A stretch of 64,000 bases of DNA from Acidobacteriaceae bacterium (GCA_003159975.1 PLPU01000446.1:7570-71569); one strand, 5' to 3'. Numbered from the stretch's first letter, positions 2,864-32,139 are shown. Notes: generated by a model not told the origin, from the sequence alone. Made by a program: numbers and translations.

Positions 2864-5800
2864 CTACTGACTAACTGTTACGTTGACGGTAAACGGCAGA
2901 GACACATCGTTTCCGTTCGCTTGCACGATGACGGTTTGCGCGCCAGAGGTTCCAGGATTTGTGGTAACCGTCAGAGACCCGGTTTCCTTGGCTGAAACCG
3001 TAACCCAGTAGCTCCCGGCCGGCGTAACACCGGTTGTTTTCGTCGAACCCAGAGTCGTGGTGCTGCATGCGGTGATGCCGGCCATAGCGGCTCCGCAAAG
3101 CAATAGACTGACGACCGTCAGAAGAACCCTCAATCGCGAGGCCCTCTTGCGGAATGCGAAGCCGAGGAAGCCCAACCCGAACAGCGTCGCGAGTGCGAGG
3201 CTGCTCTTGTCCGCTGCATTACGACTGGCAGTGAGATTTGGGCTTACGTTGGTATTGATGGTCACCAAAACCGTGCCGGGCCCAAGGCATCCATCAACGG
3301 CAGTGCAAGGCGTTGTCCCACTGCTCGAATGATTGGACGAATATCCATTTACGGACCCAGGCGCAGGGCCGATATCGATGGCGCAGTATGCGGGCGCCGC
3401 GGAAGTGCTCGTAGCGCATTCCAGTCCACCGGGGTTCGTCATGAAATTTGGATCTGCTGCATTCGGAGTTGGATAGGTAAAGGAGCACGTTGCGTACGCC
3501 GGCAGACCTTGGCACTGCAAGTCGATCGGCATCGACCAGTTAAGGTTGCTCGTGTCGTTGCGTCCCGCATATCCATATCCCAGGACCGAAGTTAACGTGA
3601 GCGTCGCCGACGCCGAGGATCCGGAAGCCACAGTCAGCGAGGCCGGGCTGGAGCTGATCTGGACCATCGGACTGCGCAGCGCCCATATTCCTATGGCGCT
3701 TCCCGTGACCTGCGTGAAGTTGGGATTGGTGCTGACAAGGTCGTTATAGGTCCCCGTATAGACCGGAGTAACCGTGTAATAGGTCATGATATCGGGGATT
3801 GTGGTGTTGCTTGTGCTGATCGTCGCGCATGAAAGTGCCATCGAGGCATCCCCGGTGTCAGACACGTCGATGATCGATGAGCTACCCGCATCGTTGCCGC
3901 AGAGGGACACGCCGCTCGCACTTTCATAGTTCACTGATCCATAGTTAAATCCTGTCTCCACATTCGAGCTATTGTAGATGGCTGTACCGATCATGGGAAA
4001 GCCGGCCTCTGTCGGCGCGACAGTAACAGGATAGGTGTAAAGCCAATCGTTGACCGATCCGTCGTATGGCTGATCGCCACCGCAACCCGCGGCGCACTCC
4101 CCTCCAAGGATCAGGTAACCCGAAGGATTCCCGGAGGGCTGCCCATAGCTATACGAGGTGGTGCAACTGGAGCCGGAGCCCGCCGTACACGGGAGCGTAT
4201 AGGCCTCCAGTGGAATCGAAGGGAGCCCGGTCTGGGGCAACGTTAAGGTTGTGGGCTGGGTTATCGTGACTGCTACCGCCGCAGTGATGGAGGCGGCCTC
4301 CGTGTTGCTGGAGTGCTCGTAAATGTAGGTCGCATCTCCGTTGTATTCGGCTGTGAACGAATACGACCCAATGGGAAGCATGGTTGGATTGAACGAGGCC
4401 GCCGCATTGGTGAGTGGCAGAGTGATTGTGTACGGGTCTGGCAGAGCTGGATTGGTAACAGGAACATTGCTACCGGGAATGACCGTAAGGGTCACGGTCC
4501 CCGTTAATGGTTGGGTGTTAGCCGCAGTGGGCGCGACGACCACCGAAATCGGGATCCCTTCGATGCTGCCGTTGGCGCCCACAGTCATCGTAGTCGTTGT
4601 AGCGGCCAACGTCGGAGCCACGCCTGTGCTGTTCACGCCCACGGGAGTATTGGCCACATCGCCCTGAACCAGAACCTCGCCTGTCAGAGTGCCTCCGTCG
4701 CCGATACCGGAGCTGAAGGTGATGGTCACTGTGCAGGTCGAGTTGATGGCGATCGAATTGCCGATGCATGTGTCCGCTGTCTCGCTATAGTCGGCGGTAT
4801 TTGAGTAACCCGTGACCGTCAGGGGTGCATTGCCATAGTTCAGGAGCGTCGCCGTTTGTGTCGTAGACGAACCTGCGGACGGAGCCGGATATGAGTCGGC
4901 GGTCAGGGTTCCGAAATTAATAGACGCGCTGGCGCTGGTCAGGTTGACGTCCAGCGCGCTCCCGTCCGCCACGTAAATGTTGCCCAGAGAATCCAGGGCC
5001 ACAGACGCCGGATTCGTGACGGCGCTCGCTACGTGTGTTTTGTCGGCGATGTTAAGACTGCCGCTCACGCTGGGAACACGAATCGTCCCGCCCGCCATGG
5101 CAACGTAAACCGAGCCCGAGGGATCGACCGCGAGGCCGGTCACGCCAGCGAGGCCGCTGAGCACTTGAGTCTGGGTTCCGGTCGGCGCGACTTCGTACAC
5201 GCTACCGCCGTCGACTACATAGAGATTATCGTTAGAATCCACCGCTATCGCAGAAGGTGTGCTCACCGCGGTACCGGAGACGTATACGATTTGCGAACTC
5301 AGCACGCCGGGCAGGCTGGTGTTCCAGCCTGTGCTGAAATTCTCCAGCTCATAGACTTTCTGGTTGCTCACGTCCGATACAAAGAGATTGCCAAGGCCGT
5401 CCGCAGCCAGCAGAACCTGTGAGCCGAAGGTCAAGCCGGTCTTCAGCGTCACCTGGCCCTTGGAATTCAGGCCCGCGGCGGTTTCCGGAACCTCATAGAG
5501 GCTGCCGCTGTCAGCGATGAAAACATCGCCGGCTCCATCGACCGCAACGCCCGTCGGAGCTTTGAGGCCTGTACCCACGGAAGTCCCCGCAGCGCCCGCT
5601 GCCGAACCCGCCGGGTACAACTCCACCGCGCCAAGGCCCGAATCAGCCACATAGAGATTGCCGGCCGCGTCCAGGGCTATTTGACTGGGCGTCTTGAGGC
5701 CGCCGGCGATTGTCGACTGCGCCGGCTCCATAAACTGCACAGCGGCGCTCGTTCCAGTGCCCCCAAGGGGGATGGAAGCCAGCAGATTGCCCTTCGCGTC

Positions 5801-7090
5801 CAGCATGACCAAGGTGGCGGAAACTTTACCCGCTGCGTGGGGATTGAAGCTTACAACAACAGGGCAGTACGTCAGTGCAGCATTAGCTGTACCGACGGCG
5901 CAGTTTGCCGAGCTGCTGCTGACGATCGTGAAGTCCAGATTACTCGAACCGGCTTCCAGCACCTCTATCGTGCCGGGAGTCGTGCTTGCATTGAAACTGA
6001 AGTTGATACTTTTCTGTGCGGGTTTGCTTGTCCCAACCGTCTCCGCGCCAAATGCGGCGGCGTTGAAGGCAACTTTCACGGGGTCGCTGGTGTTGTTCTG
6101 AATGGAAGGAACGAACACGTACCCGTCATTACCCGTCACCCCGACTGACCCTTGAGCGATCACAGAGGTCAGCAGCAGAGCCGCGCTGGACGAAGTTGAG
6201 CCGACGGGTAGCAAAAAGACGCCGTCCGTGCTGTCGCCGATATAAATATTCCCGGCACCATCGACGGTCACTCCCGTCACGCTGGGCAGACTGGGATCGA
6301 TTCGCTTGAGGCCCGAATCCGACGTCAGTCCGGTTGTTCCGGCGGGAATCTCGTAAGCGCCAACCAAAGCGCCCGAACCTTGCTCGACAAAATAGATATT
6401 GCCTGTCGGGTCCTCGGCAATCGAGATTGCCGTTCCCTTCAGGCCTGTGATGATTGAGGTCGCCGCTCCTGCCACCGGGGCGGCCGGCGATCCAGAGACC
6501 GCGATACTGGCGATCCCGTTCCCGGTCGAGCCGCTGGTTCCGATCAGGACACTGGTATTGCCGATTCCGATTCCCCACGTCTGCACCCCGGTCCCGAAAT
6601 TGTAGAAGCTGGGGGCGGTCGTGCCGCAGGCGCTTGAAGAAGGGGCTTTCGATGTTAACGCGGCCAGACCATCCCATGTGCCGGTGACAGTGTCGTAGGG
6701 ATATATCAGCACGCAAGTGCCGCCCTCGATATACAGATTGTTGGCGGTGTCGATGGCGATTCCCGGGGTCACAATGCTGTTGGTGGCGCTACTGCCGGCG
6801 AGGCCGCCGGAGCCAACGAGCGTCTTGAAAGTTACCCCGCCGGCAGGCAACTCATACAGCGCTCCGTTCGTATCGTCCTCGACGAGCCAGTCCCCGAAAG
6901 TATCGGTAGCGGTGTTCGCGATACTCCCAATGCTGGTTTGCGCCGGCTGAGCCAGCCCGGTGGCGAAACTCGCGATGGCCGTCGGCGTGGTCTGCGCCCA
7001 GGCTCCCGCGCAAAACCCTGCGGCTAGGAACAGGAACGTCAGCGCAAATCCGGAGAACCGGCGCAGCGACATGGATGAATTGCTGAACAT
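2864..7090 (-). CDS. Large secreted NHL-repeat beta-propeller / Ig-like surface protein
   Basis: Signal peptide ending AWA-Q. Many 'P.GVAVD.AG.vYvAD' NHL repeats and Ig-like domains. C-terminal membrane hairpin. Start moved to ATG 7090, which has an AGGGGG RBS. Confidence 0.8.
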   Translation of the reverse strand: MFSNSSMSLRRFSGFALTFLFLAAGFCAGAWAQTTPTAIASFATGLAQPAQTSIGSIANTATDTFGDWLVEDDTNGALYELPAGGVTFKTLVGSGGLAGSSATNSIVTPGIAIDTANNLYIEGGTCVLIYPYDTVTGTWDGLAALTSKAPSSSACGTTAPSFYNFGTGVQTWGIGIGNTSVLIGTSGSTGNGIASIAVSGSPAAPVAGAATSIITGLKGTAISIAEDPTGNIYFVEQGSGALVGAYEIPAGTTGLTSDSGLKRIDPSLPSVTGVTVDGAGNIYIGDSTDGVFLLPVGSTSSSAALLLTSVIAQGSVGVTGNDGYVFVPSIQNNTSDPVKVAFNAAAFGAETVGTSKPAQKSINFSFNASTTPGTIEVLEAGSSNLDFTIVSSSSANCAVGTANAALTYCPVVVSFNPHAAGKVSATLVMLDAKGNLLASIPLGGTGTSAAVQFMEPAQSTIAGGLKTPSQIALDAAGNLYVADSGLGAVELYPAGSAAGAAGTSVGTGLKAPTGVAVDGAGDVFIADSGSLYEVPETAAGLNSKGQVTLKTGLTFGSQVLLAADGLGNLFVSDVSNQKVYELENFSTGWNTSLPGVLSSQIVYVSGTAVSTPSAIAVDSNDNLYVVDGGSVYEVAPTGTQTQVLSGLAGVTGLAVDPSGSVYVAMAGGTIRVPSVSGSLNIADKTHVASAVTNPASVALDSLGNIYVADGSALDVNLTSASASINFGTLTADSYPAPSAGSSTTQTATLLNYGNAPLTVTGYSNTADYSETADTCIGNSIAINSTCTVTITFSSGIGDGGTLTGEVLVQGDVANTPVGVNSTGVAPTLAATTTTMTVGANGSIEGIPISVVVAPTAANTQPLTGTVTLTVIPGSNVPVTNPALPDPYTITLPLTNAAASFNPTMLPIGSYSFTAEYNGDATYIYEHSSNTEAASITAAVAVTITQPTTLTLPQTGLPSIPLEAYTLPCTAGSGSSCTTSYSYGQPSGNPSGYLILGGECAAGCGGDQPYDGSVNDWLYTYPVTVAPTEAGFPMIGTAIYNSSNVETGFNYGSVNYESASGVSLCGNDAGSSSIIDVSDTGDASMALSCATISTSNTTIPDIMTYYTVTPVYTGTYNDLVSTNPNFTQVTGSAIGIWALRSPMVQISSSPASLTVASGSSASATLTLTSVLGYGYAGRNDTSNLNWSMPIDLQCQGLPAYATCSFTYPTPNAADPNFMTNPGGLECATSTSAAPAYCAIDIGPAPGSVNGYSSNHSSSGTTPCTAVDGCLGPGTVLVTINTNVSPNLTASRNAADKSSLALATLFGLGFLGFAFRKRASRLRVLLTVVSLLLCGAAMAGITACSTTTLGSTKTTGVTPAGSYWVTVSAKETGSLTVTTNPGTSGAQTVIVQANGNDVSLPFTVNVTVSQ

Positions 7091-7217
7091 AACATTTCCC
7101 CCTGGAAGACTCATACCAACTTTGTTCGTAACCTCAAACCGCAGCATGAACGGACCTGAATTCCGCGGCTTGCGGAGGGCGGCTGCCCGCCCTCCATAAG
7201 CCACTTCGCACCGGCAT

Positions 7218-10200
7218 CTATTGGGCCGCCTGAATCGTCACGGGTATTGTGAAGGGCAGTGACTCCTGCGCACCCGACGATGGATCCGTGACCAAAATGC
7301 TGACCTTATAAGTACCGGCCGGAGTTGTGTACACCGGAACCTTGATTTGCTGCGTGTAACTGTTGTTGGTGCAACCGCCAAAGCCCATGACGGCCCCGAT
7401 CAGCAACAACGCAAGAGAGACACTGTTGAGCAGCTTGTGGTTGAAGATCGCCCTCCTTCGCAACGCCAGCCCGAAGAGTCCGAGACCGAGGAACCCAGCC
7501 GGAATCAGCGGTGAGGTGCCCGGCCGATTGGCCGGCACATTGGCTGCGGTCGCCGGCGGCAGGTTTACCGGGATGTTGGAGCTGATGGTAACCACGGTCG
7601 TAGTAATTCCGCTGCACGGAATCGCGGTTGTGCCGGGGGGCGCACAGATAACAGGGTTAGGAACGCTGAATGTACACTCGGAATAGTACGGAAGCGTGGA
7701 GTTGTTGCACGCGATGTTGGCGCCATTCGGGGCCGAGAACCCAGCAAGCGATTGCAAGGTGATGGTACTCGCCACCGGAGTCCCGGCTGAAGTCGAGACC
7801 GAAGTCGGGCTTGCCGTGATCAGCACGCTGCTCGGAATGACCTGGAACGCGATGGCCGAAGAAGTGACGGAAGCGAAATTCTGATCGCCGCTGAAGACGG
7901 CGGTGATAGAGTAGGATCCGTTCGCCAATGTGCTTGTGTTGAAGACTGCATTCCCGTTCGCATCCAGCGGGGCGGTTCCCACGGCCTGAGAGCCGTTCAT
8001 GAAGGTAAAGGTGCCCGACGGCGACCCGAGCGACGAGGAAACGTTAACCGCAAGGGTGATTGAGTTTTGTCCGGTCTCGACATAGTAGATGCCGTTGAAG
8101 CTGTTGGGGCTGACGCCGAGGGGCTCGCTCAGTGTGATTGTCGGCGCCGCCGGCGCAACAGTAAACGTCACGGCGCTGCTTGTGCTCTTTTGCATCAGTT
8201 GAGCAACATTTCCGCCATATTGGGCCGTCACGCTATACCCGCCGCCCTCGATCCCAGTCAGGTTGAATGTTGCGGTGGTGCCCGCATCGGTACCCGAGGC
8301 GGTCCCTGTTTGCGTAATGGGTTGTTGCGTGCAGCCCACGGCTGTGCAGGCGACCGTCAGTGTGACCGGCCCCGATGGAATGTTGGTATTGGGGGGGGTG
8401 GTGGAAGTCGGTTCCGGCGTGACGGTCACAGTGACCGTCGTGCCCCCAGGGTAAGTCGTGGTAGCCGGGTTGAGGCTGACGGCCGTTTGAGTCGGCTCGA
8501 GGTTGGCTGTGGCCTGGCCCTCCAGCGCGGCAGTGATGTCACCCGCAGGAACGTTACCCGCGTTCGTTGGGACCGTCATGGAATCGCCGGAATAAGCGCC
8601 TTTCGTCGGCGGCGTGAACCCGATTCCCAGCGTGCAAGACGAGCCGGTAGCCACGGGCGTCGCGCCCGTGGTATCGCATGCAGTCCCACTGTTGGAGGCT
8701 ACCACTGAGAAATCGGCGGCATCGTTACCGGAGAATGTGGGGTTTCCGGTCAACGTGAGAGGCTCGTTGCCGATGTCAAACAAGGGGACGTCCTGTTGGG
8801 TGAGAACAGTAGGGGTAAGGCCTACACCAAAATTCACCAATCCTGTGACGGCCAATTCGAACAGGTTCGGGGTACTGTTTGTCATGTCGGAAACATACAG
8901 ATTTCCCGTCTGATCCAGGGCCACGCTAGTGGGCGCAGTGATGGTGCTGTCCAATGAGCCCGCACTGTTGACGCTGAGAGTCCCGCTAATCGAGGGGATG
9001 CGAAGGATGCCGCCGCTTTCAGATACAAGCACCGACCCGGACGCATCCACAGCCAGGCCGGTAACAGAACCAGCCAGGGAAGTGGTGATTGGGGTCTGCA
9101 CACTCTCCGGCGTGACTTCATACAGAGTCGAACCATCGGCAACAAACAGGTCGCCGGAGGAGTCCATAGCGATCGCACTGGGTTGGTTGAATCCCGAGCC
9201 GACAGTGATGGTGGTTGAAGCGTTGATACCCGCCTCATCGCCGTTAGGAATCAAATTGGCTGTGGCGGGATTGGGAATCTTGACAACACGGGAGTTGTTG
9301 GGGTCCGCGACATATACGTTGCCGACGCCGTCCACCGCCAGATTGAGATCCTTTCCAAGGCCCGAGGCGACGACGGCCTGGCCCGCGGTGTTGAGGACGC
9401 CGTTTACCGCGGGAATCTCGATCACGTTTCCGGAGTCGGCAATATAAACATCGCCCGACCCGTCCACGGCAACGCCGGTGGGGGCCACCAACCCGCTCCC
9501 GATCGAAGTACCCGTTGCACTGGAGGAATTCGCCGGGAAGTAAAGAACTTTCTTGAGACCGGAATCGGCAAGATACGTATCGCCGAGGGAATCGGCAGCC
9601 ACCTGCGCGGGGGACTGGAGTCCGGAAGCGATTGCGGTTTGCATGGGAGAGTCAAGCATCGCCGCTTCCGCGCCTTGCCCGGTTCCGCTCAGATAGACCT
9701 TGCTGCCCTGAATCATGTTGTTACTCGAATCCAACATCGTCACCTGACCGGAGACAGCCCCTGGGGCGCGCGCATTCAACGCTACCCAAATCTGGCAGCT
9801 AGATTGCGCCGTGTATGCTGTTGCCGCAGTGCATGGAACTGCCGGCGTTCCCGATTGAGGAGGATTGGGGTTTGCCGATGCGGCCGCGAAATCCGTCCCG
9901 CCTGCTGTCTGCGAGTATTGAATGGATCCAGGCGTGACCGCCTGGTTAAAGGTCACAAATACAGTACCTGACGGTCCCGCGGTTCCCGACCCCGAGGAGC
10001 CAAGCGTGAAATTCACGCCGTTGCTCTGCAAGGCGCCCACGATAACTACCACATTCCCCGTGGTCGCGTCCGGCGGCACCACCGCCACGATCGACGTGGG
10101 GCTCCAACTGGTGATTGTGGTCGTCGACGTCTGATTGTTGAACAAGACCGTGCTGGTACCCTGCGCCGCACCGAAGTTCGCCCCGGAAATCGTCACCGAG

Positions 10201-11432
10201 CTGCCTGCCACGCCGAAGTTAGGATTGAGGCTCAAGATCGTCGGCGAGTTGCCCGAGACGCCCAGGTTGAGAGAGCCCGGAGCCCACACCACGATTGCCC
10301 ATTCGCCCGGATACGGCCCCGAGCCATTGGGAGTCCAATCATCATAAGAGGGGATCCAGAGGTATCCTCGCGGATCGATGGCAATGGCATTGTTGCTTCC
10401 CACGGGAGCGAGAAGGGAAATGTGATTGAAGTTCAGGCAGGAGGGGCTTGTCACCTTGCTTGGACTCCCGCATTCGTTGGGAATCATCCAGACCCCGTTG
10501 AAGGTCTCGTCATAGGTAGGGTTGTTCTCGGAGGCGAGATAGAGATTGCCGGCCGCATCCAGCGTCACGCCGCCGTACACGATCGTATTGGTGGGCGCAT
10601 CGATGCGCTGCAGAGTCGCCTCTACATCCCCATCACCCGTTCCCGTAAGGCCGGTGGTACCGGCGGGGATGAAGAAAATTCCGTTAACGCGCGCCGTGTT
10701 CTTTACGGCGCGATTCTCGGTGAAATAGATGTTTCCGTTCACATCGATCGCCAGCTTTCCCTGGTCGGCTTTCAGGCCGGTGACGATGGCGTTAGCCTTG
10801 ACAGATGTCTGGCTCGCGTTCCCCGTCTTATCCACCGCGAGCGAGTAGATGTTGTTCTGGGTCTCGGCCATCCAGTACAGCGTCCCGCTGCCATCCATCG
10901 CCGGGTTGTCCACCCACTCCACGTCGTCGGAGCCGTAGGAGTAGAGTTGGTCGCCCTGGGCATCAAATATATTGCCGCCCCAACCGTTGCTGGCCGTGGG
11001 TTGCCACGTGTTCTGACTGGCATTGTAGGGAACGCGCCAGAAAAGAGCGTCGGAGACGAACTTGGGTTCATAGCGAATGGTGAAATAGAGGGTGCCTTGG
11101 GCATCTATCGCCATGCCAATGGCGCTGTACCCGGTCCCGAAAATCCCAGGTGTTGCAGCAGTTCCGTCGACAAGGGTTGACCAGGATGTCGCGCCAGGGG
11201 AGAGCTGATACAGGGAGCCATTTCCCGCATCCAGCGCCAAAACGTTCCCCTTATAAAAGGCGATTTTGTAAATCTGGCTCCAGTTTTGGTCGGAGGGTAC
11301 GATAAACACCGAGCCAGTCGTCACTGGCGGAGCCTGAGCTCCAGCGGTTCCGCACACCGACAGTGCCCCCATCATTAAAACAACCCCGGTGCGCGCCAGC
11401 CGGCGAAAGTACGTCTTAGTCTCGATGGCCAT
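7218..11432 (-). CDS. Large secreted NHL-repeat / IPT-TIG / Ig-like surface protein (paralog of 2864-7090)
   Basis: Signal peptide ending AGA-Q. NHL repeats, IPT/TIG domain (PTILSLNP...VTISGANFG...SWSPTSI), Big-like domains and a C-terminal membrane hairpin. ATG 11432 has a GGGAGG RBS. Confidence 0.8.
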   Translation of the reverse strand: MAIETKTYFRRLARTGVVLMMGALSVCGTAGAQAPPVTTGSVFIVPSDQNWSQIYKIAFYKGNVLALDAGNGSLYQLSPGATSWSTLVDGTAATPGIFGTGYSAIGMAIDAQGTLYFTIRYEPKFVSDALFWRVPYNASQNTWQPTASNGWGGNIFDAQGDQLYSYGSDDVEWVDNPAMDGSGTLYWMAETQNNIYSLAVDKTGNASQTSVKANAIVTGLKADQGKLAIDVNGNIYFTENRAVKNTARVNGIFFIPAGTTGLTGTGDGDVEATLQRIDAPTNTIVYGGVTLDAAGNLYLASENNPTYDETFNGVWMIPNECGSPSKVTSPSCLNFNHISLLAPVGSNNAIAIDPRGYLWIPSYDDWTPNGSGPYPGEWAIVVWAPGSLNLGVSGNSPTILSLNPNFGVAGSSVTISGANFGAAQGTSTVLFNNQTSTTTITSWSPTSIVAVVPPDATTGNVVVIVGALQSNGVNFTLGSSGSGTAGPSGTVFVTFNQAVTPGSIQYSQTAGGTDFAAASANPNPPQSGTPAVPCTAATAYTAQSSCQIWVALNARAPGAVSGQVTMLDSSNNMIQGSKVYLSGTGQGAEAAMLDSPMQTAIASGLQSPAQVAADSLGDTYLADSGLKKVLYFPANSSSATGTSIGSGLVAPTGVAVDGSGDVYIADSGNVIEIPAVNGVLNTAGQAVVASGLGKDLNLAVDGVGNVYVADPNNSRVVKIPNPATANLIPNGDEAGINASTTITVGSGFNQPSAIAMDSSGDLFVADGSTLYEVTPESVQTPITTSLAGSVTGLAVDASGSVLVSESGGILRIPSISGTLSVNSAGSLDSTITAPTSVALDQTGNLYVSDMTNSTPNLFELAVTGLVNFGVGLTPTVLTQQDVPLFDIGNEPLTLTGNPTFSGNDAADFSVVASNSGTACDTTGATPVATGSSCTLGIGFTPPTKGAYSGDSMTVPTNAGNVPAGDITAALEGQATANLEPTQTAVSLNPATTTYPGGTTVTVTVTPEPTSTTPPNTNIPSGPVTLTVACTAVGCTQQPITQTGTASGTDAGTTATFNLTGIEGGGYSVTAQYGGNVAQLMQKSTSSAVTFTVAPAAPTITLSEPLGVSPNSFNGIYYVETGQNSITLAVNVSSSLGSPSGTFTFMNGSQAVGTAPLDANGNAVFNTSTLANGSYSITAVFSGDQNFASVTSSAIAFQVIPSSVLITASPTSVSTSAGTPVASTITLQSLAGFSAPNGANIACNNSTLPYYSECTFSVPNPVICAPPGTTAIPCSGITTTVVTISSNIPVNLPPATAANVPANRPGTSPLIPAGFLGLGLFGLALRRRAIFNHKLLNSVSLALLLIGAVMGFGGCTNNSYTQQIKVPVYTTPAGTYKVSILVTDPSSGAQESLPFTIPVTIQAAQ

Positions 11433-11620
11433 GATAACCCTCCCAAACAGTCTCATTCAAATGCCCCCGCGAACGGCATCGCCGCCAGCCCGCAATATTC
11501 AGGGTCACGCCAAAATGGCGGCCCTCTGATCCTTACCGTACAGCGGACAGACTTCCTGCCGCCGATTCACGCGCTCCAGGCGACCGTGCGATCAGCGCCG
11601 GGGCCGCCTGGAGCGATTTC

Positions 11621-14600
11621 TCAAAACGTGAACTTTCCACTCAGTTCCAGGAGGCGCGAACCGTACTTCACGTTCGCGATCCCGAAGTTCTTATGTCCCA
11701 GTTCCGACGTTGTAAGGGGCTGTCCCGCCCCCGCCTCCAGCAAGCCGCCCAGGCTCAGATTGGTACTGTCGTTGTTGTTGAAGGAAACCTCGGGGTGGTT
11801 GAGAAAATTGAAGGCGGCAGCTTTAAACTGGATCTTCTTGTTCTCTCCAACCCCGAATTCCTTAATCAGCGTCAGGTCGTTTTTCAGGAAGGCGGGACCG
11901 TGAATATAAGGAAGCCGATACTGGCCCTGCCCGCTGGGGTTCTTTGAGACCACATAACCCTTCCCCGAGGTGCCGCTGCCCGGCAGCGGGATACCGAAGC
12001 AGGTCGCCTGCATGTACTGATGCGTCGCTTTTCCACCTGCTGGATTGCAGTTCACTGTAGGCATCAACTGGTAATCGGGAGTGCCCATCCAGACCAGCGG
12101 GTTCAAGTTGGTTACGCAATACGTATGCCCGTCGGCGTCCGGTTGGACGCCATAGTTGTTAGCGCAGAATTTGTCGGCGTTGCCCGCCCCATCGATCTGC
12201 TGCTGCATGAAGACGCGGGTCCATTCAATACTGCCGTATCCAAATCCGAAGTTCTCGCCCTGCTCCGAGGGCAGGTCCGGACCGCTCGAAACCTGTGATA
12301 TACCCGAAATCTGCCAGCCGTTCGCGGCCTTGGATAGAATGCGACTTCCGCCGTGGTAGCGTGTTCCCAGATTGACCAGATAGTGGATGTTGAAGACGTG
12401 GGTGCGATCGAACGGGGCCGGGTTGTAGTCGTTCCGCAGATTCAGGGGATCCGCAAGCGTGTTGTTGTAGGATGCGGCCGTCGCAAGATCCTTCGAGAAG
12501 GTGTAGTTCGCTCCCCAGCTCACAAAGCCCGCTGCTTTGTTCCACGACACCTGCAGGCTGTTGTAGTTCGAGTAATAGTCGTGCTTCAGCGCGTAAATGT
12601 GCTGATAGAAGGGGTACGTCCTGAAGAAGTCCTGGCACTGCGTGGTCAAAGAGCTGAGGTCTGCGCAGCCCGTCCCCTTGAGTGCGGTTGGTATATTGCC
12701 GATTTCGAAGCCGGGCGCAAAGAATCCGCCCAGAGGAATCACATTCAGATCCGACGCGCCGTTGTAGCCGCTGGCCTGGGTGTTATAGGTTGGCAGGTTG
12801 ATGGATTTGTTTCCGACATAGGCGACCTCGAGCAGCGACTTCCACATCAGCCTCCGGTCAACGGTTACATTGAACTGATAGTAGATTGGCCGAACATTGT
12901 CAGTCGGAGAGACGGTGTAGACATTGATGTCTGGCGGGTTGATCGGCGACTGATTGTCTACCAGATCGAAGGTCAATTCCCCGATGGACTCGCTCGTCTT
13001 GTAGCCCTGCGCGCTCGCCGCTGCCAGAGCATAGGGCTGAAACTCCTCCTCGTTGCGATACATGCCCCATCCGCCGCGCAGAACGGTGTCGCCCCTCCCG
13101 AAGATGTCCCATGAGGCGCCGACCCGGGGAGTGAAATATACCGTGGGCGGGTTGCTTACCGAGTTCGAGACGGAGCTTTGTTGCCCGTGCCAGACGAGAC
13201 CGGGCAGCGCCAAACTGCTGCAGTTTCGAACCGTACATTCGTTGCTGTAGAGCGTGGGAGAAAAGGTGGCCAGGCCGTTGTTATGACGGTCGAACCACGG
13301 GCCCAGATGCTCCACGCGAGCCCCAAGCATCAGCGTGACCCGGTGCAACTTCCAGGAGTCGTTGAGAAAACCGGCCAATGTCGTGTACTGCATGTCCACG
13401 ATCGGCGAGAAGTTCGTCTGCGTGAAGCTATCTGTGTACCCCATATACATCATGGCCACGCCATTGATGCAGTTGCCGAAATACGCCGCACCCGAGCTGC
13501 GGCTCGTGCCATTCGGATCCGGGTTCTCGCAGTTGAGGTAATTCGCATTTTGACCCACGCTCGAGTTGTACTGGAAGTACCCATTGCCGGGATTGAACGT
13601 GTACTCTCCTTGCGGAAAAGCAGCCGCATAATCGGCGGTTCCATTCAGGATGCCCCGCTCGCCATAAATCCCGAACGAGAAGTTATGCGGTCCCTTCATC
13701 CAGTTCACCGTGTCCGCCAGCGTCGGGACGACCTTTTTCATCCTGATCTGGTTATTGTAGAAACCGCCCGGCATTAACATGTTGGGATAGCCGAGAGAGC
13801 TATAGTCCGAGAGCGCCGGCACCGAATAGTCCCCGTTGTTCTTGTATTCGCCAAGGTAGTTGAAACCCTGGGTGCCGCCACATGTACCCGCCGCCCGCTG
13901 CGTCGGATTCGCGCAGTCATACTGGCCCAACGAGAACCGGCTGACCGCGTTTGGGTTGCCCATATTACCCGGATCGCTGATGAAGGACATGGAGGCGCTG
14001 GCTTCGTTGGTCACGCTGGCGCCAAACGTCCGCATGTAGTGACCGGAGAAAATGTTGGAAAGATCGCCGGCTGTCACTTGCCCGGGATATTCCATGGCAT
14101 AGTTGGGAGCGTATCCCCAGGCGACCGGCTCATCGCTTACCTGCTGCTGGCGGCCCCAGGTTGCATAGAGCTTGTTGGAGTCGTTCAGGTTGTAATCCAT
14201 GCGGATATGAAGCTGATAGCCGTTCTGAGTCTGGATCACCGGCTGGACATAGTTGTAGCCCTGCTCGTTTATAAACGGATCGGCGTTTGGCAGCGGCAGC
14301 CAGTTGACCAGGGCCACGCCGGAAGAATTGGCATATGGACTCACGTTGCCATTGGCGATTGAGTTGCCGTTCGGCAGATAGTTGTTTGTTTCACACATCG
14401 GCAGGACCGCGTTCAGGTTCACGCCGCCGTCCGGACGCGCGCCGCAAAGCTGGGCGTTCAACGACTCCGCACTGAAATCACCGTTGCGCTCGGACATGGT
14501 CGGAACCCAGGAGCCAAGGGTTTCCGCCCAGAAATTCTGGTTGTAATATTCGTAGCCGGCAAAGAAGAACAGCTTCTCGTTGTGCGGGCCGAACCGGGTA

Positions 14601-15547
14601 TGGGGAATCCATACCGGGCCCCCCAGCTGCCCGCCTGGATAAAGATAACGTCCCGGAGGCCGGGTCTGCTGAAGATAGTTGTTGTACCAGTCATTGGCGT
14701 TGAGCAGCGTATCGCGGACATACATGTATGCATTACCGTGGTACGCAACCCCGCCGGCCTTGGTCGTGGCATTCAGTACAGCAGGGCCCTTCGCATACTC
14801 GGCGCTGAAGGTCGATGTCGTTGCCTTGATCTCCTGGATCATGTCGGAGTTCACCGTCTGCACGGTTCCGGCATTTGTATCGATATCCTGGATCGAGACG
14901 CCATCGATGATCGAGGCCAGCCCGGTTGGGCCGGCGCCGTTCGCGGAATAGGATCCGGTGGCGCCGCTCATGCCCACTACGGCTGTGTTCGGCGCCTGGT
15001 TGTTGACGCCCGGGCTGATCATCGCCATTCCCGGCAACATCTCGATCAGTTCCGTTGCGTCGCGGCCCTCAAGAGGCAGCGTCTCCAGATCTTTCGCCGT
15101 GATTACATCGCTGCGCTCGGCCGTATCCAATGGCTTAAGGGCTTGGTTGGCCTCCGCTTCCACTGTGACATCCGCGGCCGCCTGGGCGATGTGCATCTTG
15201 ATATCGGCGAAAGGAATTTGATCGCCGGGCCGCAGCGCAAAGGGCCGCGACTGCCACGTTTCAAAGCCCGGCGCCGTCACCCGAAGCTGGTATCGCAGCC
15301 CCGCCGTGACCGCCGTGAGCGCAAACTCTCCTACACCGTTGCTGACTGTCCTGCGCTCGGATCTGTTGTCGAGATTCGTCACTACCACGGTAGCGTTCGG
15401 AATCACAGCGCCAGTTTGGTCCTGCACTACGCCGGTCACGGTGCCTGTGGTGTCCTGCGCCAAAGCGGGCGATTGCCATAACAGCAGCACCGCGACGATA
15501 AGCCCCAAAAATGCGGATGCCGGCCTGAACCCAGGTAAAAACGTCAT
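11621..15547 (-). CDS. TonB-dependent receptor with N-terminal carboxypeptidase-regulatory-like domain (Oar-like)
   Basis: Signal peptide, GTVTGVVQDQTGAVIPNATV domain, plug motif LPLEGRD..EL, FSAEYAKG, and C-terminal barrel signal ELSGKFTF. ATG 15547 has an AGGGGG RBS. Confidence 0.9.
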   Translation of the reverse strand: MTFLPGFRPASAFLGLIVAVLLLWQSPALAQDTTGTVTGVVQDQTGAVIPNATVVVTNLDNRSERRTVSNGVGEFALTAVTAGLRYQLRVTAPGFETWQSRPFALRPGDQIPFADIKMHIAQAAADVTVEAEANQALKPLDTAERSDVITAKDLETLPLEGRDATELIEMLPGMAMISPGVNNQAPNTAVVGMSGATGSYSANGAGPTGLASIIDGVSIQDIDTNAGTVQTVNSDMIQEIKATTSTFSAEYAKGPAVLNATTKAGGVAYHGNAYMYVRDTLLNANDWYNNYLQQTRPPGRYLYPGGQLGGPVWIPHTRFGPHNEKLFFFAGYEYYNQNFWAETLGSWVPTMSERNGDFSAESLNAQLCGARPDGGVNLNAVLPMCETNNYLPNGNSIANGNVSPYANSSGVALVNWLPLPNADPFINEQGYNYVQPVIQTQNGYQLHIRMDYNLNDSNKLYATWGRQQQVSDEPVAWGYAPNYAMEYPGQVTAGDLSNIFSGHYMRTFGASVTNEASASMSFISDPGNMGNPNAVSRFSLGQYDCANPTQRAAGTCGGTQGFNYLGEYKNNGDYSVPALSDYSSLGYPNMLMPGGFYNNQIRMKKVVPTLADTVNWMKGPHNFSFGIYGERGILNGTADYAAAFPQGEYTFNPGNGYFQYNSSVGQNANYLNCENPDPNGTSRSSGAAYFGNCINGVAMMYMGYTDSFTQTNFSPIVDMQYTTLAGFLNDSWKLHRVTLMLGARVEHLGPWFDRHNNGLATFSPTLYSNECTVRNCSSLALPGLVWHGQQSSVSNSVSNPPTVYFTPRVGASWDIFGRGDTVLRGGWGMYRNEEEFQPYALAAASAQGYKTSESIGELTFDLVDNQSPINPPDINVYTVSPTDNVRPIYYQFNVTVDRRLMWKSLLEVAYVGNKSINLPTYNTQASGYNGASDLNVIPLGGFFAPGFEIGNIPTALKGTGCADLSSLTTQCQDFFRTYPFYQHIYALKHDYYSNYNSLQVSWNKAAGFVSWGANYTFSKDLATAASYNNTLADPLNLRNDYNPAPFDRTHVFNIHYLVNLGTRYHGGSRILSKAANGWQISGISQVSSGPDLPSEQGENFGFGYGSIEWTRVFMQQQIDGAGNADKFCANNYGVQPDADGHTYCVTNLNPLVWMGTPDYQLMPTVNCNPAGGKATHQYMQATCFGIPLPGSGTSGKGYVVSKNPSGQGQYRLPYIHGPAFLKNDLTLIKEFGVGENKKIQFKAAAFNFLNHPEVSFNNNDSTNLSLGGLLEAGAGQPLTTSELGHKNFGIANVKYGSRLLELSGKFTF

Positions 15548-15674
15548 GTAATACCCCCTTGGCTGCACAATTCTTTGCGAGATCGGGAGTTCGTGTGGCG
15601 CTAAACGGTTCGCCCCAGCGAAATTCGTGCGCGCCACATAATTCCGACCTACGCTCACTTTGTGAATCGGATAT

Positions 15675-15704
15675 ACGCTACTCGACATGATTCAACATTG
15701 TCAA
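15675..15704 (-). promoter_or_regulatory. Putative sigma70 promoter of the TonB receptor/NHL genes
   Basis: Minus strand TTGACA-N18-TAGCGT about 130 nt upstream of the start. Motif match only. Confidence 0.35.
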
Positions 15705-16086: not shown

Positions 16087-19000
16087 CTACTGCGGGATCA
16101 CGAAGAGGGTGATCGACTGCGCAGGGAACGTGTAGTTGGCGATCGTGCCGGTCGAGCTTCCCCCAGCCGGCGGTGTTACGGTTACTGCCGGTTGCGCGGC
16201 AATCGCATTCAGATTGGCGTTGCTGTAAAGATAGGCTTGCGCCGTGGTTGCGCTGGCCGACAAGCCGGTGAGCGAGAGCGTGCTGGTGAGTGCCCCGTAA
16301 GTTTTGTTGATGACCACCACAGTCACCGTGCCGGTGGCGGCGCCGGCGGTGTGAATCGCCCCATAGACCGCGAGTTGCCCCTCGGCATCGGCATTGGACG
16401 AATTGGTGCTTGCGGAGGGAAGTACCGTGTCGCCAAACGTGGATTTGTTCCCGTCGTAGTTGCGATAAATAGCGAAGGCCATCATACCCGGGATCTGCTC
16501 CGACGGATCGGTTGTGGGCCACATGGTGCCCAGGTCGAGACCCTGGCGGCCAAAGATGCCCAGAATGTCGGCCTCCGTCAGTGCACCGTTGATGGCCTCC
16601 ATTCCGCCGAAGTTATATTCGTCGATGGCTGTTTTGGTGCCGGGATAATCTTTCGTAACCCAGGTCTTCATCATCGGAATCAGTTGCGGCGCCTGCTGTG
16701 GAGGTGAGCAGCTTGTGGTGTGGTTGGGGTCAGTGATGTAGTTCGGCTGCGGGTAATTATCACTGGGATCGGTATAGGTCGGATCCCAGAAGGCACGCGT
16801 TGCATTGAGCCGCGCCTGCTGCGCGCCGGTGTCTCCAGCCGGGGCCAGACCGAGGCCGGCGCCGTTGACAAAGGGATAATTGGGTGCGAAATACGTGTGC
16901 AGATCCACGTAATCAAGAAGGCGTATACCGTACGTAGCCTGCGCTGCCGCAAATTGCTGCAGATAGTACTCGATGAGCGGAACTCCGCCGTGCGCTTTGC
17001 GATCGACCGGATTGCTCCAAGGCTCATAGCAAGAGCCTGAGCTCCATCCGGACTCGATATCTTTCTTGGAATAGAAGTAGGCCCACCAGTAGTCGATCAC
17101 CGGTCCGCTCACCTGCGCGGTTGGATCGACGGTCTTGATGGCCAGGGCAGTGCCGATCCCGCCGTTGGTGACCTCGTCATATGTAAAGGGAAGCGGATGA
17201 ACGTCGCGATCTTCCGCGTCCCACCAGGTAGGCTCGTTGTCCAGATCGTAGATCGCCACGCCGGTGCTTGCTCCGGAAGCGGGATTCCCTGGGCCGAACT
17301 TGTTGACCAGGTAGTTTACCCAGCCGCCGGTCCATGTGGCGTCTGCCCATGCGGTGGTTACCGCGGAGGCGGCGGGTGGTGTTGGAGGAGGCTCGGAGAT
17401 GCTGGTGAGAGCGGCTATCGTGCTGTTGCCATAGATGTCGCACCCACCGGAGTCGGTACAGCCCGCGGTTCCGTCGGGGTATTCGCCGACACCGCAATTG
17501 CCGTTGTAGCTTACCTGGCCTGGGTATGTCGACTTCAGGAAGCTGCATGAGGTGCTGTCCTTTGCCACATAGCCCAGCACAGGCACTGTGCCCAGAGTCT
17601 TGATCCCGTCGCTGTTGTTGGTCTCGACAAGGTAGTCGAATGCTTTTGTTCCGCTTACTGCGGGCCAACCATCCCCGCCATTGCCGGTAGAGTTTTCAAA
17701 GTACCAGTCGGCGATGGAACTGGTCACATCCACCTGATAGTTGTAGCGCTCGGTGGAATCGCCTCCCCAGCGATCGATGGTGATGTTGGCTTTTGCGACC
17801 GCTGCGGTATCAGCCGAAGTGGCATCGAGAAGATACGCGTCCATGCCGTAGATTTCGGGGCTGATGGGATTGCCGGGGCTGGCCACATTTACGGTCAGCG
17901 CCGGCCCGGTGGCCGTGGCCGGGGAATTGAGAGTTACGGTTGTGCTGCCGCTGATGTTCGTGAATCCGGTCTCGGTGCTGGTGGCCTTAACGGTAACGGT
18001 TGCCGGAGCCGGATAGGGCGTTGTATATAAGCCGCTGGAACTCAGCGTGCCTGGGCTCAGGCTTCCGCACGAAGGGCACGTGAGTGCCCAACTCACTGCG
18101 CTGCTGAAATTGCCGGTGCCGTTTACCGTGGCCACCATTTGGACCGTGTCTCCAATCGTCGCGGTATTGGGCGTAACCGTGATCGATGAGATGTTCGGCT
18201 CGCTGTACATGGCCGTAACGGTCGTATTGGCGTTCATCGTCACGTCGCAGGTGACGGTGCTGCTGCTGGCGCATCCATTCCACACAACAAAGCTATAACC
18301 GTCCGATGGGCTGACCGCGGTGAGCGTAACGGAGGTTCCCGACTTGTAGGTGCGCGTGAGCGGGGTCGTGCCGGAGCCGTTCCCATTCACATCCGAGGGG
18401 GACGCCTGGATTTCTACGCCGCTTGCGGGACTAGCCGAGTCAATGGTGAGAGAGTAAGTTGCCGGCGCCGCATAGTTGGCTGTCACGGTCATATTGCCGT
18501 TCAACGTTACTTTGCAGGTGACGGTGCTTGACGAGGTGCAACCGGTCCACGACAAAAACGCGTTGCCGCTTGAATTTGCCGGCGCCGTCAATACCAGTTG
18601 CGTGCCGGCCGCCGCGGTTTGCGTAAAGCTCGTGGTCCCCACGAAGGGATCGATGGGGGGAGGGTAGTCGACCTGGATCTGGACCCCGCTGGCAGGGTTG
18701 ATCGAATTCACAGTGAGCACATACACCGGAGTAACAGTTACCGGACTCGTTCCCGAAGTACTGTTATAGGTCGGTGAACTTGCCGCATCTGGCGTGTAGG
18801 TGACGGTGAGCGTGTCGGTCCCCGTTGCCAGCGAGCCGGCGGCGACACTGATTGTCGCCGTGCCGCCGATCAGCGTGGCTGTCGCCGATGTATAGCTGCC
18901 GCTGCTCAGTGTAACCGCGCCGGTAGGCGTCGGGTTGCCGCTTCCGCCACTGACAGCAACGGTCACCGAGAGCGCTTGCGCCGGCGTGATGCTCGCCGGA

Positions 19001-19701
19001 GACGGCGTGACCGTTACCGTCGGAGTACTCTTTGCTACCGTGACCGAAGCAGTTCCCGAAGCGCCGGTGTAAATGGAGGAGCTCGTTGCATCCGGCGTAT
19101 AGGTCACGGTCAGCGTATCGGTGCCGACCGGCAGTGTTCCGGCGGCAACAATAAAGGTTGCTCCGCCCCCGCTCAGCGTTGCCGCGGCGGAGGTGTAACT
19201 CCCGCTGGTCAAAGTTACCGTGCCGGTGGGTGTTGGATTGCCGCTTCCTCCGTTGACGGCCACCGTCACCGTCAGTGCCTGCGCGGTTGTAATGCTTGAG
19301 GAAGACAATGTAGCTGTCACCGTCGGTGTGACGATCACGGCATAGTTGGCCGTGACCGTTGTGTTGGCATTCAAAGTTACTGTACAGGTGACGGTGCTGG
19401 CGGACGTGCATCCGGTCCATGAACTGAATGGATTGCTGCCAGCCGTGTTAGGAGCGGTGAGCGTGACCGAGGCGCCGGAGTCATATGTGCGGGCGAAACT
19501 TGTCGTTCCAGATGTTGCGCCGTTGTTGTCCTGCGGAGTTACACCGATGGATACGCCGGTAGCCGGGTTGGCCGAATCCACAGTGACCACATAGGTCGTT
19601 GGAGGCGGAGGCGGTGGCGAGCCGCTGCCCCCGCAGGCGGTCAAGAAAAGGCTTATCCCGATGGCTGCGAAGGCCGCTGCTTTCCATTGCAAATTCCTCA
19701 T
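16087..19701 (-). CDS. Lipoprotein glycoside hydrolase family 44 (endoglucanase/xyloglucanase) with N-terminal Ig-like repeat stalk
   Basis: Lipobox LTAC-GG. GH44 motifs ISPEIYG, RWGG...RYNY, YDLDNEP.WW, RDVHP, LLDYVDLH and AIDEYNFGG. Repeated Ig-like modules N-terminal to the catalytic domain. Confidence 0.85.
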   Translation of the reverse strand: MRNLQWKAAAFAAIGISLFLTACGGSGSPPPPPPTTYVVTVDSANPATGVSIGVTPQDNNGATSGTTSFARTYDSGASVTLTAPNTAGSNPFSSWTGCTSASTVTCTVTLNANTTVTANYAVIVTPTVTATLSSSSITTAQALTVTVAVNGGSGNPTPTGTVTLTSGSYTSAAATLSGGGATFIVAAGTLPVGTDTLTVTYTPDATSSSIYTGASGTASVTVAKSTPTVTVTPSPASITPAQALSVTVAVSGGSGNPTPTGAVTLSSGSYTSATATLIGGTATISVAAGSLATGTDTLTVTYTPDAASSPTYNSTSGTSPVTVTPVYVLTVNSINPASGVQIQVDYPPPIDPFVGTTSFTQTAAAGTQLVLTAPANSSGNAFLSWTGCTSSSTVTCKVTLNGNMTVTANYAAPATYSLTIDSASPASGVEIQASPSDVNGNGSGTTPLTRTYKSGTSVTLTAVSPSDGYSFVVWNGCASSSTVTCDVTMNANTTVTAMYSEPNISSITVTPNTATIGDTVQMVATVNGTGNFSSAVSWALTCPSCGSLSPGTLSSSGLYTTPYPAPATVTVKATSTETGFTNISGSTTVTLNSPATATGPALTVNVASPGNPISPEIYGMDAYLLDATSADTAAVAKANITIDRWGGDSTERYNYQVDVTSSIADWYFENSTGNGGDGWPAVSGTKAFDYLVETNNSDGIKTLGTVPVLGYVAKDSTSCSFLKSTYPGQVSYNGNCGVGEYPDGTAGCTDSGGCDIYGNSTIAALTSISEPPPTPPAASAVTTAWADATWTGGWVNYLVNKFGPGNPASGASTGVAIYDLDNEPTWWDAEDRDVHPLPFTYDEVTNGGIGTALAIKTVDPTAQVSGPVIDYWWAYFYSKKDIESGWSSGSCYEPWSNPVDRKAHGGVPLIEYYLQQFAAAQATYGIRLLDYVDLHTYFAPNYPFVNGAGLGLAPAGDTGAQQARLNATRAFWDPTYTDPSDNYPQPNYITDPNHTTSCSPPQQAPQLIPMMKTWVTKDYPGTKTAIDEYNFGGMEAINGALTEADILGIFGRQGLDLGTMWPTTDPSEQIPGMMAFAIYRNYDGNKSTFGDTVLPSASTNSSNADAEGQLAVYGAIHTAGAATGTVTVVVINKTYGALTSTLSLTGLSASATTAQAYLYSNANLNAIAAQPAVTVTPPAGGSSTGTIANYTFPAQSITLFVIPQ
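18730..19330 (-). repeat. Intragenic tandem duplication of an approximately 100-aa Ig-like domain in the GH44 gene
   Basis: Two near-identical modules TPTVT...AQALxVTVAVxGGSGNPTPTGxVTLxSGSYTSAxATLxGG...GTDTLTVTYTPDA. Boundaries approximate. Confidence 0.75.
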
Positions 19702-19986
19702 CACGATGCTCCTGATTCTCTCGATCGTGGGGCCTCTGCAAGGTTGCCTTTGCAAGTACGGAGATACTCCAGCGGAATCGATTTAATTCGACACAATCCT
19801 ATAACACAGATGAGGATTCCGGCTGTGTCGAAAACGACTGACGACTTTTGCAGGATCAAATCCGAGGCATGCGATGGATTTGCCCGTGAAGCGGGCCGGC
19901 GGGATCGAGCCGGCAAGATCGAGTAAGCCCCATAGCCCGTGCATGCGCAGCCGTGGTATAGTCTTCGAGTTTTGGTGTGAGGCGCG

Positions 19987-28220: not shown

Positions 28221-28351
28221 TGCATCACCTTTCGTTTAGGCATAGAGATACCGGATGTGCGCTCTGGCACTTGTGTCCGGGGTCGTGAAAGGATCTCTCC
28301 GCGCCGCGGCATCTGGAAAGCCGCCGCGGCGCGGAGAGAGCAAAGACGAGA

Positions 28352-31810: not shown

Positions 31811-32139
31811 GCGCAGGCGATTCTGACTGTTGGATAGTAAGCTCTCTTGAACATTACAAAGTCCTCCAAAGTACCCATGCAAGCTATGGCCCGCGAATTC
31901 GGCAAATCCAATGCCTCTCCTTGTAGCCACGCATGACATCACGCCTTTGAGCTAACGATGGTCAATCCACGCAGAGCCAATTCGACGTCATTTGATCTTC
32001 TCCGGATAAGGCGCTTGTTTTCAAATATTAAGAGGTATACATCTCCTCGGATTTTGGCAGTTGCTCCGGCTGTCGAAGCTCAAATGGAGCCTTCTTGCCC
32101 CCTTCCGCTATACTGAGGGGCGGGATTTTGCCGGATCTT

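Follow-up and report, generated by a model that had tools for sequence, protein, structure and literature searches.

A putative lipoprotein-type anchor set within a split immunoglobulin-like domain at the C-terminus of two giant exported proteins of an Acidobacteriaceae bacterium

The DNA described here is a stretch of 64,000 nucleotides (hereafter the window) from an Acidobacteriaceae bacterium (GCA_003159975.1, PLPU01000446.1:7570-71569), whose genome assembly, of metagenome type, is fragmented into 616 contigs and is 76% complete. Three large genes, P0003, P0002, and P0001, lie head to tail on the minus strand of the window. The first encodes a receptor-like outer-membrane barrel; the other two encode giant exported proteins, both of which end in a tail that is matched by the NCBIfam model NF058595 "invert_tail" (lipo-invert putative C-terminal anchoring domain, release 20.0). 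In this tail an immunoglobulin (Ig)-like domain is interrupted by two transmembrane helices (TM1 and TM2), the second of which ends in a lipobox Cys. The three genes and the parts of the two tails are as follows (aa, amino acids; pLDDT, predicted local distance difference test).

11621-15688, minus strand: P0003, TonB-dependent-receptor-like outer-membrane barrel (CarboxypepD_reg, Plug, OMP_b-brl_4), first gene of a three-gene cassette
7218-11456, minus strand: P0002, exported giant of 1412 aa (database: 1404) with signal peptide, TIG, NHL/SBBP repeats, Big_3_5 Ig domains, and lipo-invert tail
2864-7204, minus strand: P0001, exported giant of 1446 aa (1408 aa from a downstream ATG) with Sec signal peptide, NHL/SBBP propeller repeats, Ig-like domains, and lipo-invert tail
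7563-7829, minus strand: P0002, last Ig-like domain, strands A-E (aa 1210-1298)
7461-7508, minus strand: P0002, TM1 (aa 1317-1332), FLGLGLFGLAL
7434-7460, minus strand: P0002, predicted cytoplasmic basic loop RRRAIFNHK (aa 1333-1341)
7371-7433, minus strand: P0002, TM2 ending in the lipobox FGGC (aa 1342-1362), Cys1362 invariant in 64/64 homologues
7221-7370, minus strand: P0002, tail after the Cys (aa 1363-1412), a conserved C-T-N-S linker, then F and G strands, pLDDT >90
3248-3667, minus strand: P0001, strands A-E of the last Ig-like domain (aa 1180-1319), containing a long insert and conserved Cys pairs
3152-3205, minus strand: P0001, TM1 (aa 1334-1351), Gly-rich FGLGFLGF
3128-3151, minus strand: P0001, predicted cytoplasmic basic loop RKRASRLR (aa 1352-1359)
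3065-3127, minus strand: P0001, TM2 ending in the lipobox ITAC (aa 1360-1380), Cys1380 invariant in 120/120 homologues
2867-3064, minus strand: P0001, tail after the Cys (aa 1381-1446), linker, F strand, two-strand insert, and G strand, pLDDT 89-96

The order of parts is the same in both tails: Ig strands A to E, a linker, TM1, a cluster of Arg and Lys residues, TM2 with the lipobox Cys at its end, another linker, strands F and G, and the stop codon. The linker from strand E to TM1 is variable (14-18 residues), that from the lipobox Cys to the tail strands comprises 13-15 residues, and the chain finishes with a TPAG(S/T)Y strand, a loop or insert, and a SLPFT..VT strand. A preliminary description of this DNA had taken these parts for an Ig-like domain broken by a hairpin of two helices around a basic cluster, and had proposed them as a new surface-anchoring signal. 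All the motifs that it quoted were located in P0001 and P0002 where it had placed them, and it read the feature correctly; the tail is real and well conserved. Its interpretation is upheld in part.

P0001 and P0002 share 36% identity over 648 aa, and their C-terminal tails align colinearly. By this comparison the two proteins are paralogues and their tails are not independent, so that the presence of a tail in both would represent one event inherited twice. Their N-terminal Sec signal peptides, of the signal-peptidase-I type, end AWA-Q in P0001 and AGA-Q in P0002. The start codons are uncertain within 7091-7204 (P0001) and 11433-11456 (P0002), the database versions P0068 (1408 aa, for P0001) and P0004 (1404 aa, for P0002) starting 38 and 8 codons downstream of the longest open reading frames (ORFs); the choice of start leaves both signal peptides unaffected.

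The split of the Ig domain is borne out by structure prediction and, at the level of the family, by sequence models. AlphaFold2 models were built with homologue alignments for P0002:1205-1412 and P0001:1175-1446 and had mean pLDDT values of 80.7 and 83.0, respectively. In both, the upstream and the tail strands reach a pLDDT of about 90 or more, with two lower-confidence helices between the halves, and the tail strands (pLDDT >89) lie within the same ~100-residue Ig sandwich as the upstream strands. An exhaustive fold comparison returned as top match for both models the Ig-like domain of sialidase 1eut_A (residues 403/404-502), with Z 10.8 and a root-mean-square deviation of 2.0 over 99 aligned residues for P0002 (model range 5-205), and Z 9.1 and a deviation of 2.1 over 100 residues for P0001 (model range 4-271). 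One small Ig domain therefore covers both halves; the Z values are moderate, and point to a shared sandwich and to nothing regarding function. A hidden Markov model (HMM) built from uninterrupted 100-residue Ig repeats of the bacterium's own genome matches the canonical tails of other genes in two colinear pieces, positions 1 to ~75 before TM1 and ~70-99 after the Cys; the pieces are complementary and map the insertion to the loop between strands E and F. The supposition of the preliminary description that the tail strands complete the Ig fold is thus upheld by the AlphaFold2 models, by the 1eut_A match across both halves, and, for canonical tails, by the two-piece HMM match.

When the Ig part and the cut tail were given to structure prediction as separate chains, the pair scored 0.56, the best of three controls scoring 0.00, with at least 96% contact agreement and a partner pLDDT of at least 67 across runs. 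The mark applied is reached by 58 of 80 solved complexes and by 2 of 110 mismatched pairs; among scores of 0.60 or below, 7 of the 80 solved complexes passed, as did both mismatches. This gives weak support to binding in trans of the cut tail to the Ig part; the two chains are halves of one Ig fold, and their resemblance to solved Ig domains may be all that the pass shows.

Conservation was assessed in 64 P0002-type and 120 P0001-type tails, with identities down to 36-41%, mostly from Terracidiphilus and other Acidobacteriaceae assemblies; the names of these homologues point to a Terracidiphilus-like bacterium as the probable source of the window. The lipobox Cys, on whose conservation the preliminary description had made its interpretation depend, is kept in 184 of 184 homologues, and the box at this position has the form [FVILM][GTSA][GSA]C. 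A lipobox rule, consisting of a PROSITE-style pattern together with an uncharged TM1 before the basic cluster, is satisfied by both window proteins, by 62 of 64 P0002-type and 118 of 120 P0001-type tails (the full lipobox being kept in 180 of 184 homologues), and by 23 of 25 tails in the bacterium's own genome. Applied genome-wide, the rule passes 38 of 6,961 ORFs of at least 200 aa, 23 of these 38 being lipo-invert tails and the remainder resembling out-of-frame noise; on these counts the tail pattern is more than chance. Mean column identity is 0.59-0.60 in TM2 and 0.74-0.76 in TM1, and ranges from 0.74 to 0.83 when TM1 is taken together with the F and G strands. TM2, less conserved than TM1 and than the F and G strands, evolves in the alignments like the core of a signal peptide. 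A Gly-rich motif of the FGLGLLGL type in TM1 is common to both paralogue families.

The conserved Cys residues of the Ig part come in pairs, and the lipobox Cys is the odd one left over. In the P0001-type split Ig domain (3248-3667), C1231/C1240 are present in 120 of 120 homologues and C1300/C1306 in 116-118 of 120, while C1263/C1274 are jointly present in 75 and jointly absent in 45 (n=120), a pattern that fits disulfides in a domain that would be extracytoplasmic.

The preliminary description also held that the basic cluster, the second helix, and the Cys mimic an internal lipoprotein signal, and both the lipobox rule and the family model agree with this. The middle (TM2) part of NF058595 also matches genuine N-terminal lipoprotein signal peptides of the bacterium's own genome, and its last 35 positions match the ends of ordinary Ig repeats there, so that these matches show the model to combine a type II signal peptide with Ig strands F-G. 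Like the classical signal processed by Lgt, LspA, and Lnt (PROSITE PS00013-type), the tail signal has a basic n-region, a hydrophobic core of 17-20 residues, and a lipobox [LVIFM][GTSA][GSA]C, and its Cys lies 29-30 residues after the first Arg, within the 15-35 residues after the basic n-region that the pattern allows. It differs in lying some 1,350 residues along the chain and after another membrane helix, with the Cys at residue 1380 of 1446 in P0001 and 1362 of 1412 in P0002, far from the N-terminal position that the classical pattern prescribes; and its predicted cleavage would yield a lipopeptide of 50-66 residues rather than a functional protein. LspA acts on lipoboxes modified by Lgt, and a lipobox at the outer end of an N-in/C-out helix has the normal geometry of its substrates. 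Genes for lspA, lgt, lolA, and a lolC/E-like protein are present in the genome. A dedicated Lgt paralogue was considered and rejected: Lgt matches number 1-4 per genome, the same in the tail-bearing family as in other families of the phylum (the sample included an unpublished genome, G024, on which no claim rests).

What had been offered as a new signal is already catalogued. The tails belong to the NF058595 family, and P0001 and P0002 are therefore a new pair of members and not a new signal. Against a cut-off of 37 bits, P0001 scores 39.5 as a fragment, 35.9 as a whole protein, and 41.6 in a six-frame search of the genome; P0002 scores 36.3 as a fragment and 38.2 in the six-frame search. The matches span model positions 2-107 and 2-112 of 113 and leave 30 and 6 residues up to the stop codon, which places them at the very C-terminus of secreted multidomain proteins. 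The catalogued family is a curated prediction with a putative function. It shares with the window tails a C-terminal arrangement of helix, basic cluster, second helix with lipobox Cys, and short beta tail, as well as a taxonomic home in the Acidobacteriaceae. The tails of P0001 and P0002 differ in being longer (66 and 50 residues after the Cys, compared with a genome median of 43), in carrying extra strands or inserts, in having Thr/Ser at +2 where most other copies in the genome have Gly, and in their own Gly-rich TM1. To the existing entry the present analysis adds the insertion point, the stronger conservation of TM1 than of TM2, and the cassette of a receptor and two giants.

The genome-wide count that the preliminary description had proposed comes to about 25 tail genes matched by NF058595, 19 of them above the cut-off. 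Among 201 sampled genomes of the phylum, the model matches 15 of 15 from the same family and 1 of 1 from its sister family, while other families give partial matches to the Ig end or none. Three further ORFs carry fragments of the arrangement. L019 (C543:18320-18529) and L022 (C536:5539-5775), of 103 and 132 aa, are degenerate hairpin-lipobox-tail modules with no passenger and are likely decayed copies. L020 (G000:C534:683-784, minus strand) is a YD/RHS-repeat-like ORF that ends in an orphan Ig F-G tail, TTAGAYTITVTGTSG...TVNLTVQ, with no hairpin, lipobox, or upstream Ig half; this tail may be a recombination remnant.

Taken together, these data lead us to an interpretation that we regard as probable, if only by a little: the tail is an anchor of the NF058595 family in which a two-helix hairpin occupies the E-F loop, and the tail peptide, lipidated and cut by LspA, stays wedged in the Ig fold. 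Under this scheme the N-terminal Sec signal would export a passenger of ~1300 residues until TM1 stops transfer, the Arg/Lys cluster remaining in the cytoplasm by the positive-inside rule. TM2 would then re-insert N-in/C-out, as a signal peptide does, so that the last 50-66 residues are exported, and strands F-G, as the models predict with high confidence, would pair with strands A-E and close the Ig sandwich beside the membrane. Lgt would diacylglycerylate the lipobox Cys at the outer end of TM2, and LspA would cut before it. The product would be a short, N-terminally lipidated peptide held in place as strands F-G, that is, a lipid anchor at the C-terminus of the passenger made by housekeeping enzymes only. 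Lipidation, cleavage (by LspA on the present scheme), and tethering by strand complementation, as proposed in the preliminary description, are plausible predictions. In chaperone-usher pili, an Ig-like fold that lacks its last strand or strands is completed by a separate polypeptide, which makes a very stable non-covalent joint; the lipo-invert strands differ in coming from the same precursor, from which only cleavage would separate them, and in being two (F and G) and not one. If the linker before TM1 were cut as well, the Lol system could carry the complex to the outer membrane, where the neighboring TonB-dependent receptor suggests a role for the giants as substrate-binding partners. This fuller version, with both cuts, Lol delivery, and the giants as SusD-like partners of the adjacent receptor, we hold to be rather unlikely as a whole.

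Several observations weigh against the anchor as proposed. A cut by LspA would leave the passenger covalently attached to the TM1-loop-TM2 hairpin, a point that the preliminary description overlooked; for that reason the lipid would be redundant, and the lipopeptide would not be the sole tether, unless a second cut were made, and searches for a protease or a cleavage motif for such a cut before TM1 found none. The conservation of TM1 exceeds what a mere stop-transfer helix requires, which hints at a step beyond those set out above. No lnt gene scored above the cut-off in the 76%-complete genome. The NF058595 scores of the window proteins sit at the family cut-off, so that their membership is marginal. 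The Ig HMM built from the bacterium's own repeats found no match in P0001, which is too divergent, and a weak and not clearly colinear match in P0002, and the case for a split Ig domain in these two proteins accordingly rests on the AlphaFold2 models and the fold matches. A literature search found no paper on lipo-invert or NF058595, and likewise nothing relevant on an internal or C-terminal lipobox or on the acidobacterial TonB/NHL context.

The most serious competing explanation is that the hairpin is never cut: the two-helix insertion in the E-F loop would then be a permanent inner-membrane anchor for a periplasmic protein, the Cys being either lipidated with no cleavage or conserved for another reason. 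In the AlphaFold2 models the uncut chain folds with no strain, the hairpin being flanked on both sides by flexible linkers of 16-23 residues; the strongly conserved TM1, with its Gly-zipper-like FGLGLLGL motif, suits stable helix packing; and an enzyme that would remove the hairpin was not found in the genome. The conservation of TM1 could stem from such packing, and would then favor a permanent hairpin, or from its being recognized by an intramembrane protease. Uncut retention accounts less well for the keeping of the whole lipobox, and not the Cys alone, in the homologues, for its match to the N-terminal lipoprotein signals of the same genome, and for a TM2 that evolves like a disposable signal-peptide core. 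The tail lipobox has, moreover, the geometry of an ordinary LspA substrate as established for the pathway, and an operon with outer-membrane barrels better suits an outer-membrane destination. Because the conservation of TM1 admits both readings and no enzyme for a second cut was found, we consider an uncut hairpin doubtful but retain it with a substantial minority share of the probability.

A signal of the sortase type is improbable. On that explanation TM1 and the Arg cluster would form a C-terminal signal of the PEP-CTERM, GlyGly-CTERM, or MYXO-CTERM kind, cut by a dedicated intramembrane enzyme, and the lipoprotein-like tail would be a second, separate product. The sequence of TM1 followed by RRR does resemble the transmembrane and basic part of such signals, TM1 is unusually conserved, GGG or GG directly precedes it in many paralogues, and the genome has a generic rhomboid gene. 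No signature motif before TM1 is common to the family, however. GG at that place is frequent in P0001-type homologues and absent from P0001 and P0002 themselves. The PEP motif is absent from P0001, P0002, and the paralogue tails, with no NCBIfam PEP-CTERM match at E<=1 on the two window proteins. MYXO-CTERM (TIGR03901) gave a weak match on TM1 of P0002 (E 0.027, 14.8 bits, below its cut-off of 20 bits) and none on P0001, and the invariant Cys follows TM2 instead of preceding the helix. In the 76%-complete genome no exosortase (PF09721) was matched, an absence that is not proof, and no rhombosortase (TIGR03902) rose above its cut-off, the best hit being the generic rhomboid at 40.5 bits against 84. 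In addition, the last Ig domain of the passenger would lack strands F-G if it lacked the tail, which makes the two parts interdependent.

The aim that the tail would share with the MYXO-CTERM/myxosortase, PEP-CTERM, and GlyGly-CTERM systems is to fix large Gram-negative surface proteins to a membrane by their C-terminal end. MYXO-CTERM tags carry their Cys ahead of one helix and are cut by a CPBP protease dedicated to them (Guo, Haft and Wall 2025, PMC11980579). Lipo-invert tails and tags of this type have in common an invariant Cys, a membrane helix, an Arg-rich cytoplasmic stretch, and dozens of substrates per genome, and differ in that the lipo-invert tail has two helices, with the Cys after the second and a folded beta tail after the Cys. 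We know of no dedicated enzyme for the tail.

That the tail might be an artefact, whether a chance pattern, an assembly error, or the fusion of a giant gene with a small lipoprotein gene, has been refuted by the conservation data and retains a negligible probability. The fragmentation of the assembly is the one point in its favor. The frame is uninterrupted in 184 homologues from many independent assemblies and is carried by some 25 paralogues in the same genome, no internal start codon has a consistent ribosome-binding site, and the upstream Ig domain is incomplete when the tail is left off. A separate translation start for the tail was rejected as a candidate: the AGG-rich Arg codons mimic a Shine-Dalgarno sequence in both genes, with no consistently spaced start codon. 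Across 24 paralogues the basic loops show no enrichment of AGA/AGG codons (16%, compared with 25% elsewhere in those genes).

The surroundings of the tail genes bear on the destination of the giants. The cassette of receptor, P0002-like gene, and P0001-like gene recurs in distant Acidobacteriaceae assemblies with differing flanks (L036-L039), with LacI-type regulators and glycoside hydrolases near the recurrent cassette. In the window, one such enzyme gene lies directly upstream of the receptor:

16087-19755: GH44 glycoside hydrolase with Big_3_5 Ig domains, directly upstream of receptor P0003

The segment 2864-19755 looks like a polysaccharide-utilisation-type locus with no SusD. The gene that follows P0001 encodes a Clp_N protein. 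Elsewhere in the genome, three further lipo-invert giants (L017, L024, and L025, on contigs C243, C339, and C245) adjoin CarboxypepD_reg-type TonB-dependent receptors, with the receptor upstream of the tail gene in the first two cases and downstream of it on C245; entire loci may have been duplicated to give this recurrent pairing. Such outer-membrane barrel neighbors are a hint, not proof, of an outer-membrane destination. Bacteroidota have SusC/SusD-type pairs, in which a TonB-dependent transporter works with surface lipoproteins. The window shares with these the order of a TonB-dependent barrel gene and then genes for large, predicted lipid-anchored proteins, with glycoside hydrolase and LacI genes nearby, and differs in that the partners are NHL/Ig giants with no SusD-like fold, whose predicted anchor is C-terminal and non-covalent.

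A second receptor of the same type in the window (28352-31942, minus strand) adjoins an alpha-amylase/cyclomaltodextrinase-like gene (26304-28220, minus strand), and the two (26304-31942) form another glycan-uptake pair. Two tail genes of the genome, on C345 and C103, and only these, precede by 10-12 bases homologous ORFs of ~200 aa (36% identity, E 6e-22):

L004:864-1487, minus strand: small ORF after a tail gene, signal peptide present
L007:1771-2358, plus strand: small ORF after a tail gene, signal peptide present

These small ORFs had no Pfam match. Both are similar to the N-terminal barrel of an OmpA-like protein encoded on C299, and the last residue of one is aromatic, as in outer-membrane barrels. 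A small barrel gene as the regular follower of tail genes was rejected, given only these two cases in the genome and the Clp_N gene in that position after P0001.

Acidobacteriaceae are abundant soil bacteria, and to our knowledge the display of large enzymes and binding proteins on their envelope has hardly been studied. The two giants of the window, now annotated as "Ig-like domain repeat" or "hypothetical", become readable, by their tails, as predicted C-terminally anchored envelope proteins. If the proposed anchor is correct, it would represent C-terminal lipid anchoring achieved with the housekeeping lipoprotein enzymes only, by way of a strand-complemented split Ig domain, and would be of interest to the fields of protein sorting and protein engineering. 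If the fuller version with a second cut also proved true, the tail would be a non-covalent C-terminal lipid anchor with no dedicated sortase, and part of a design for polysaccharide uptake specific to the Acidobacteriaceae.

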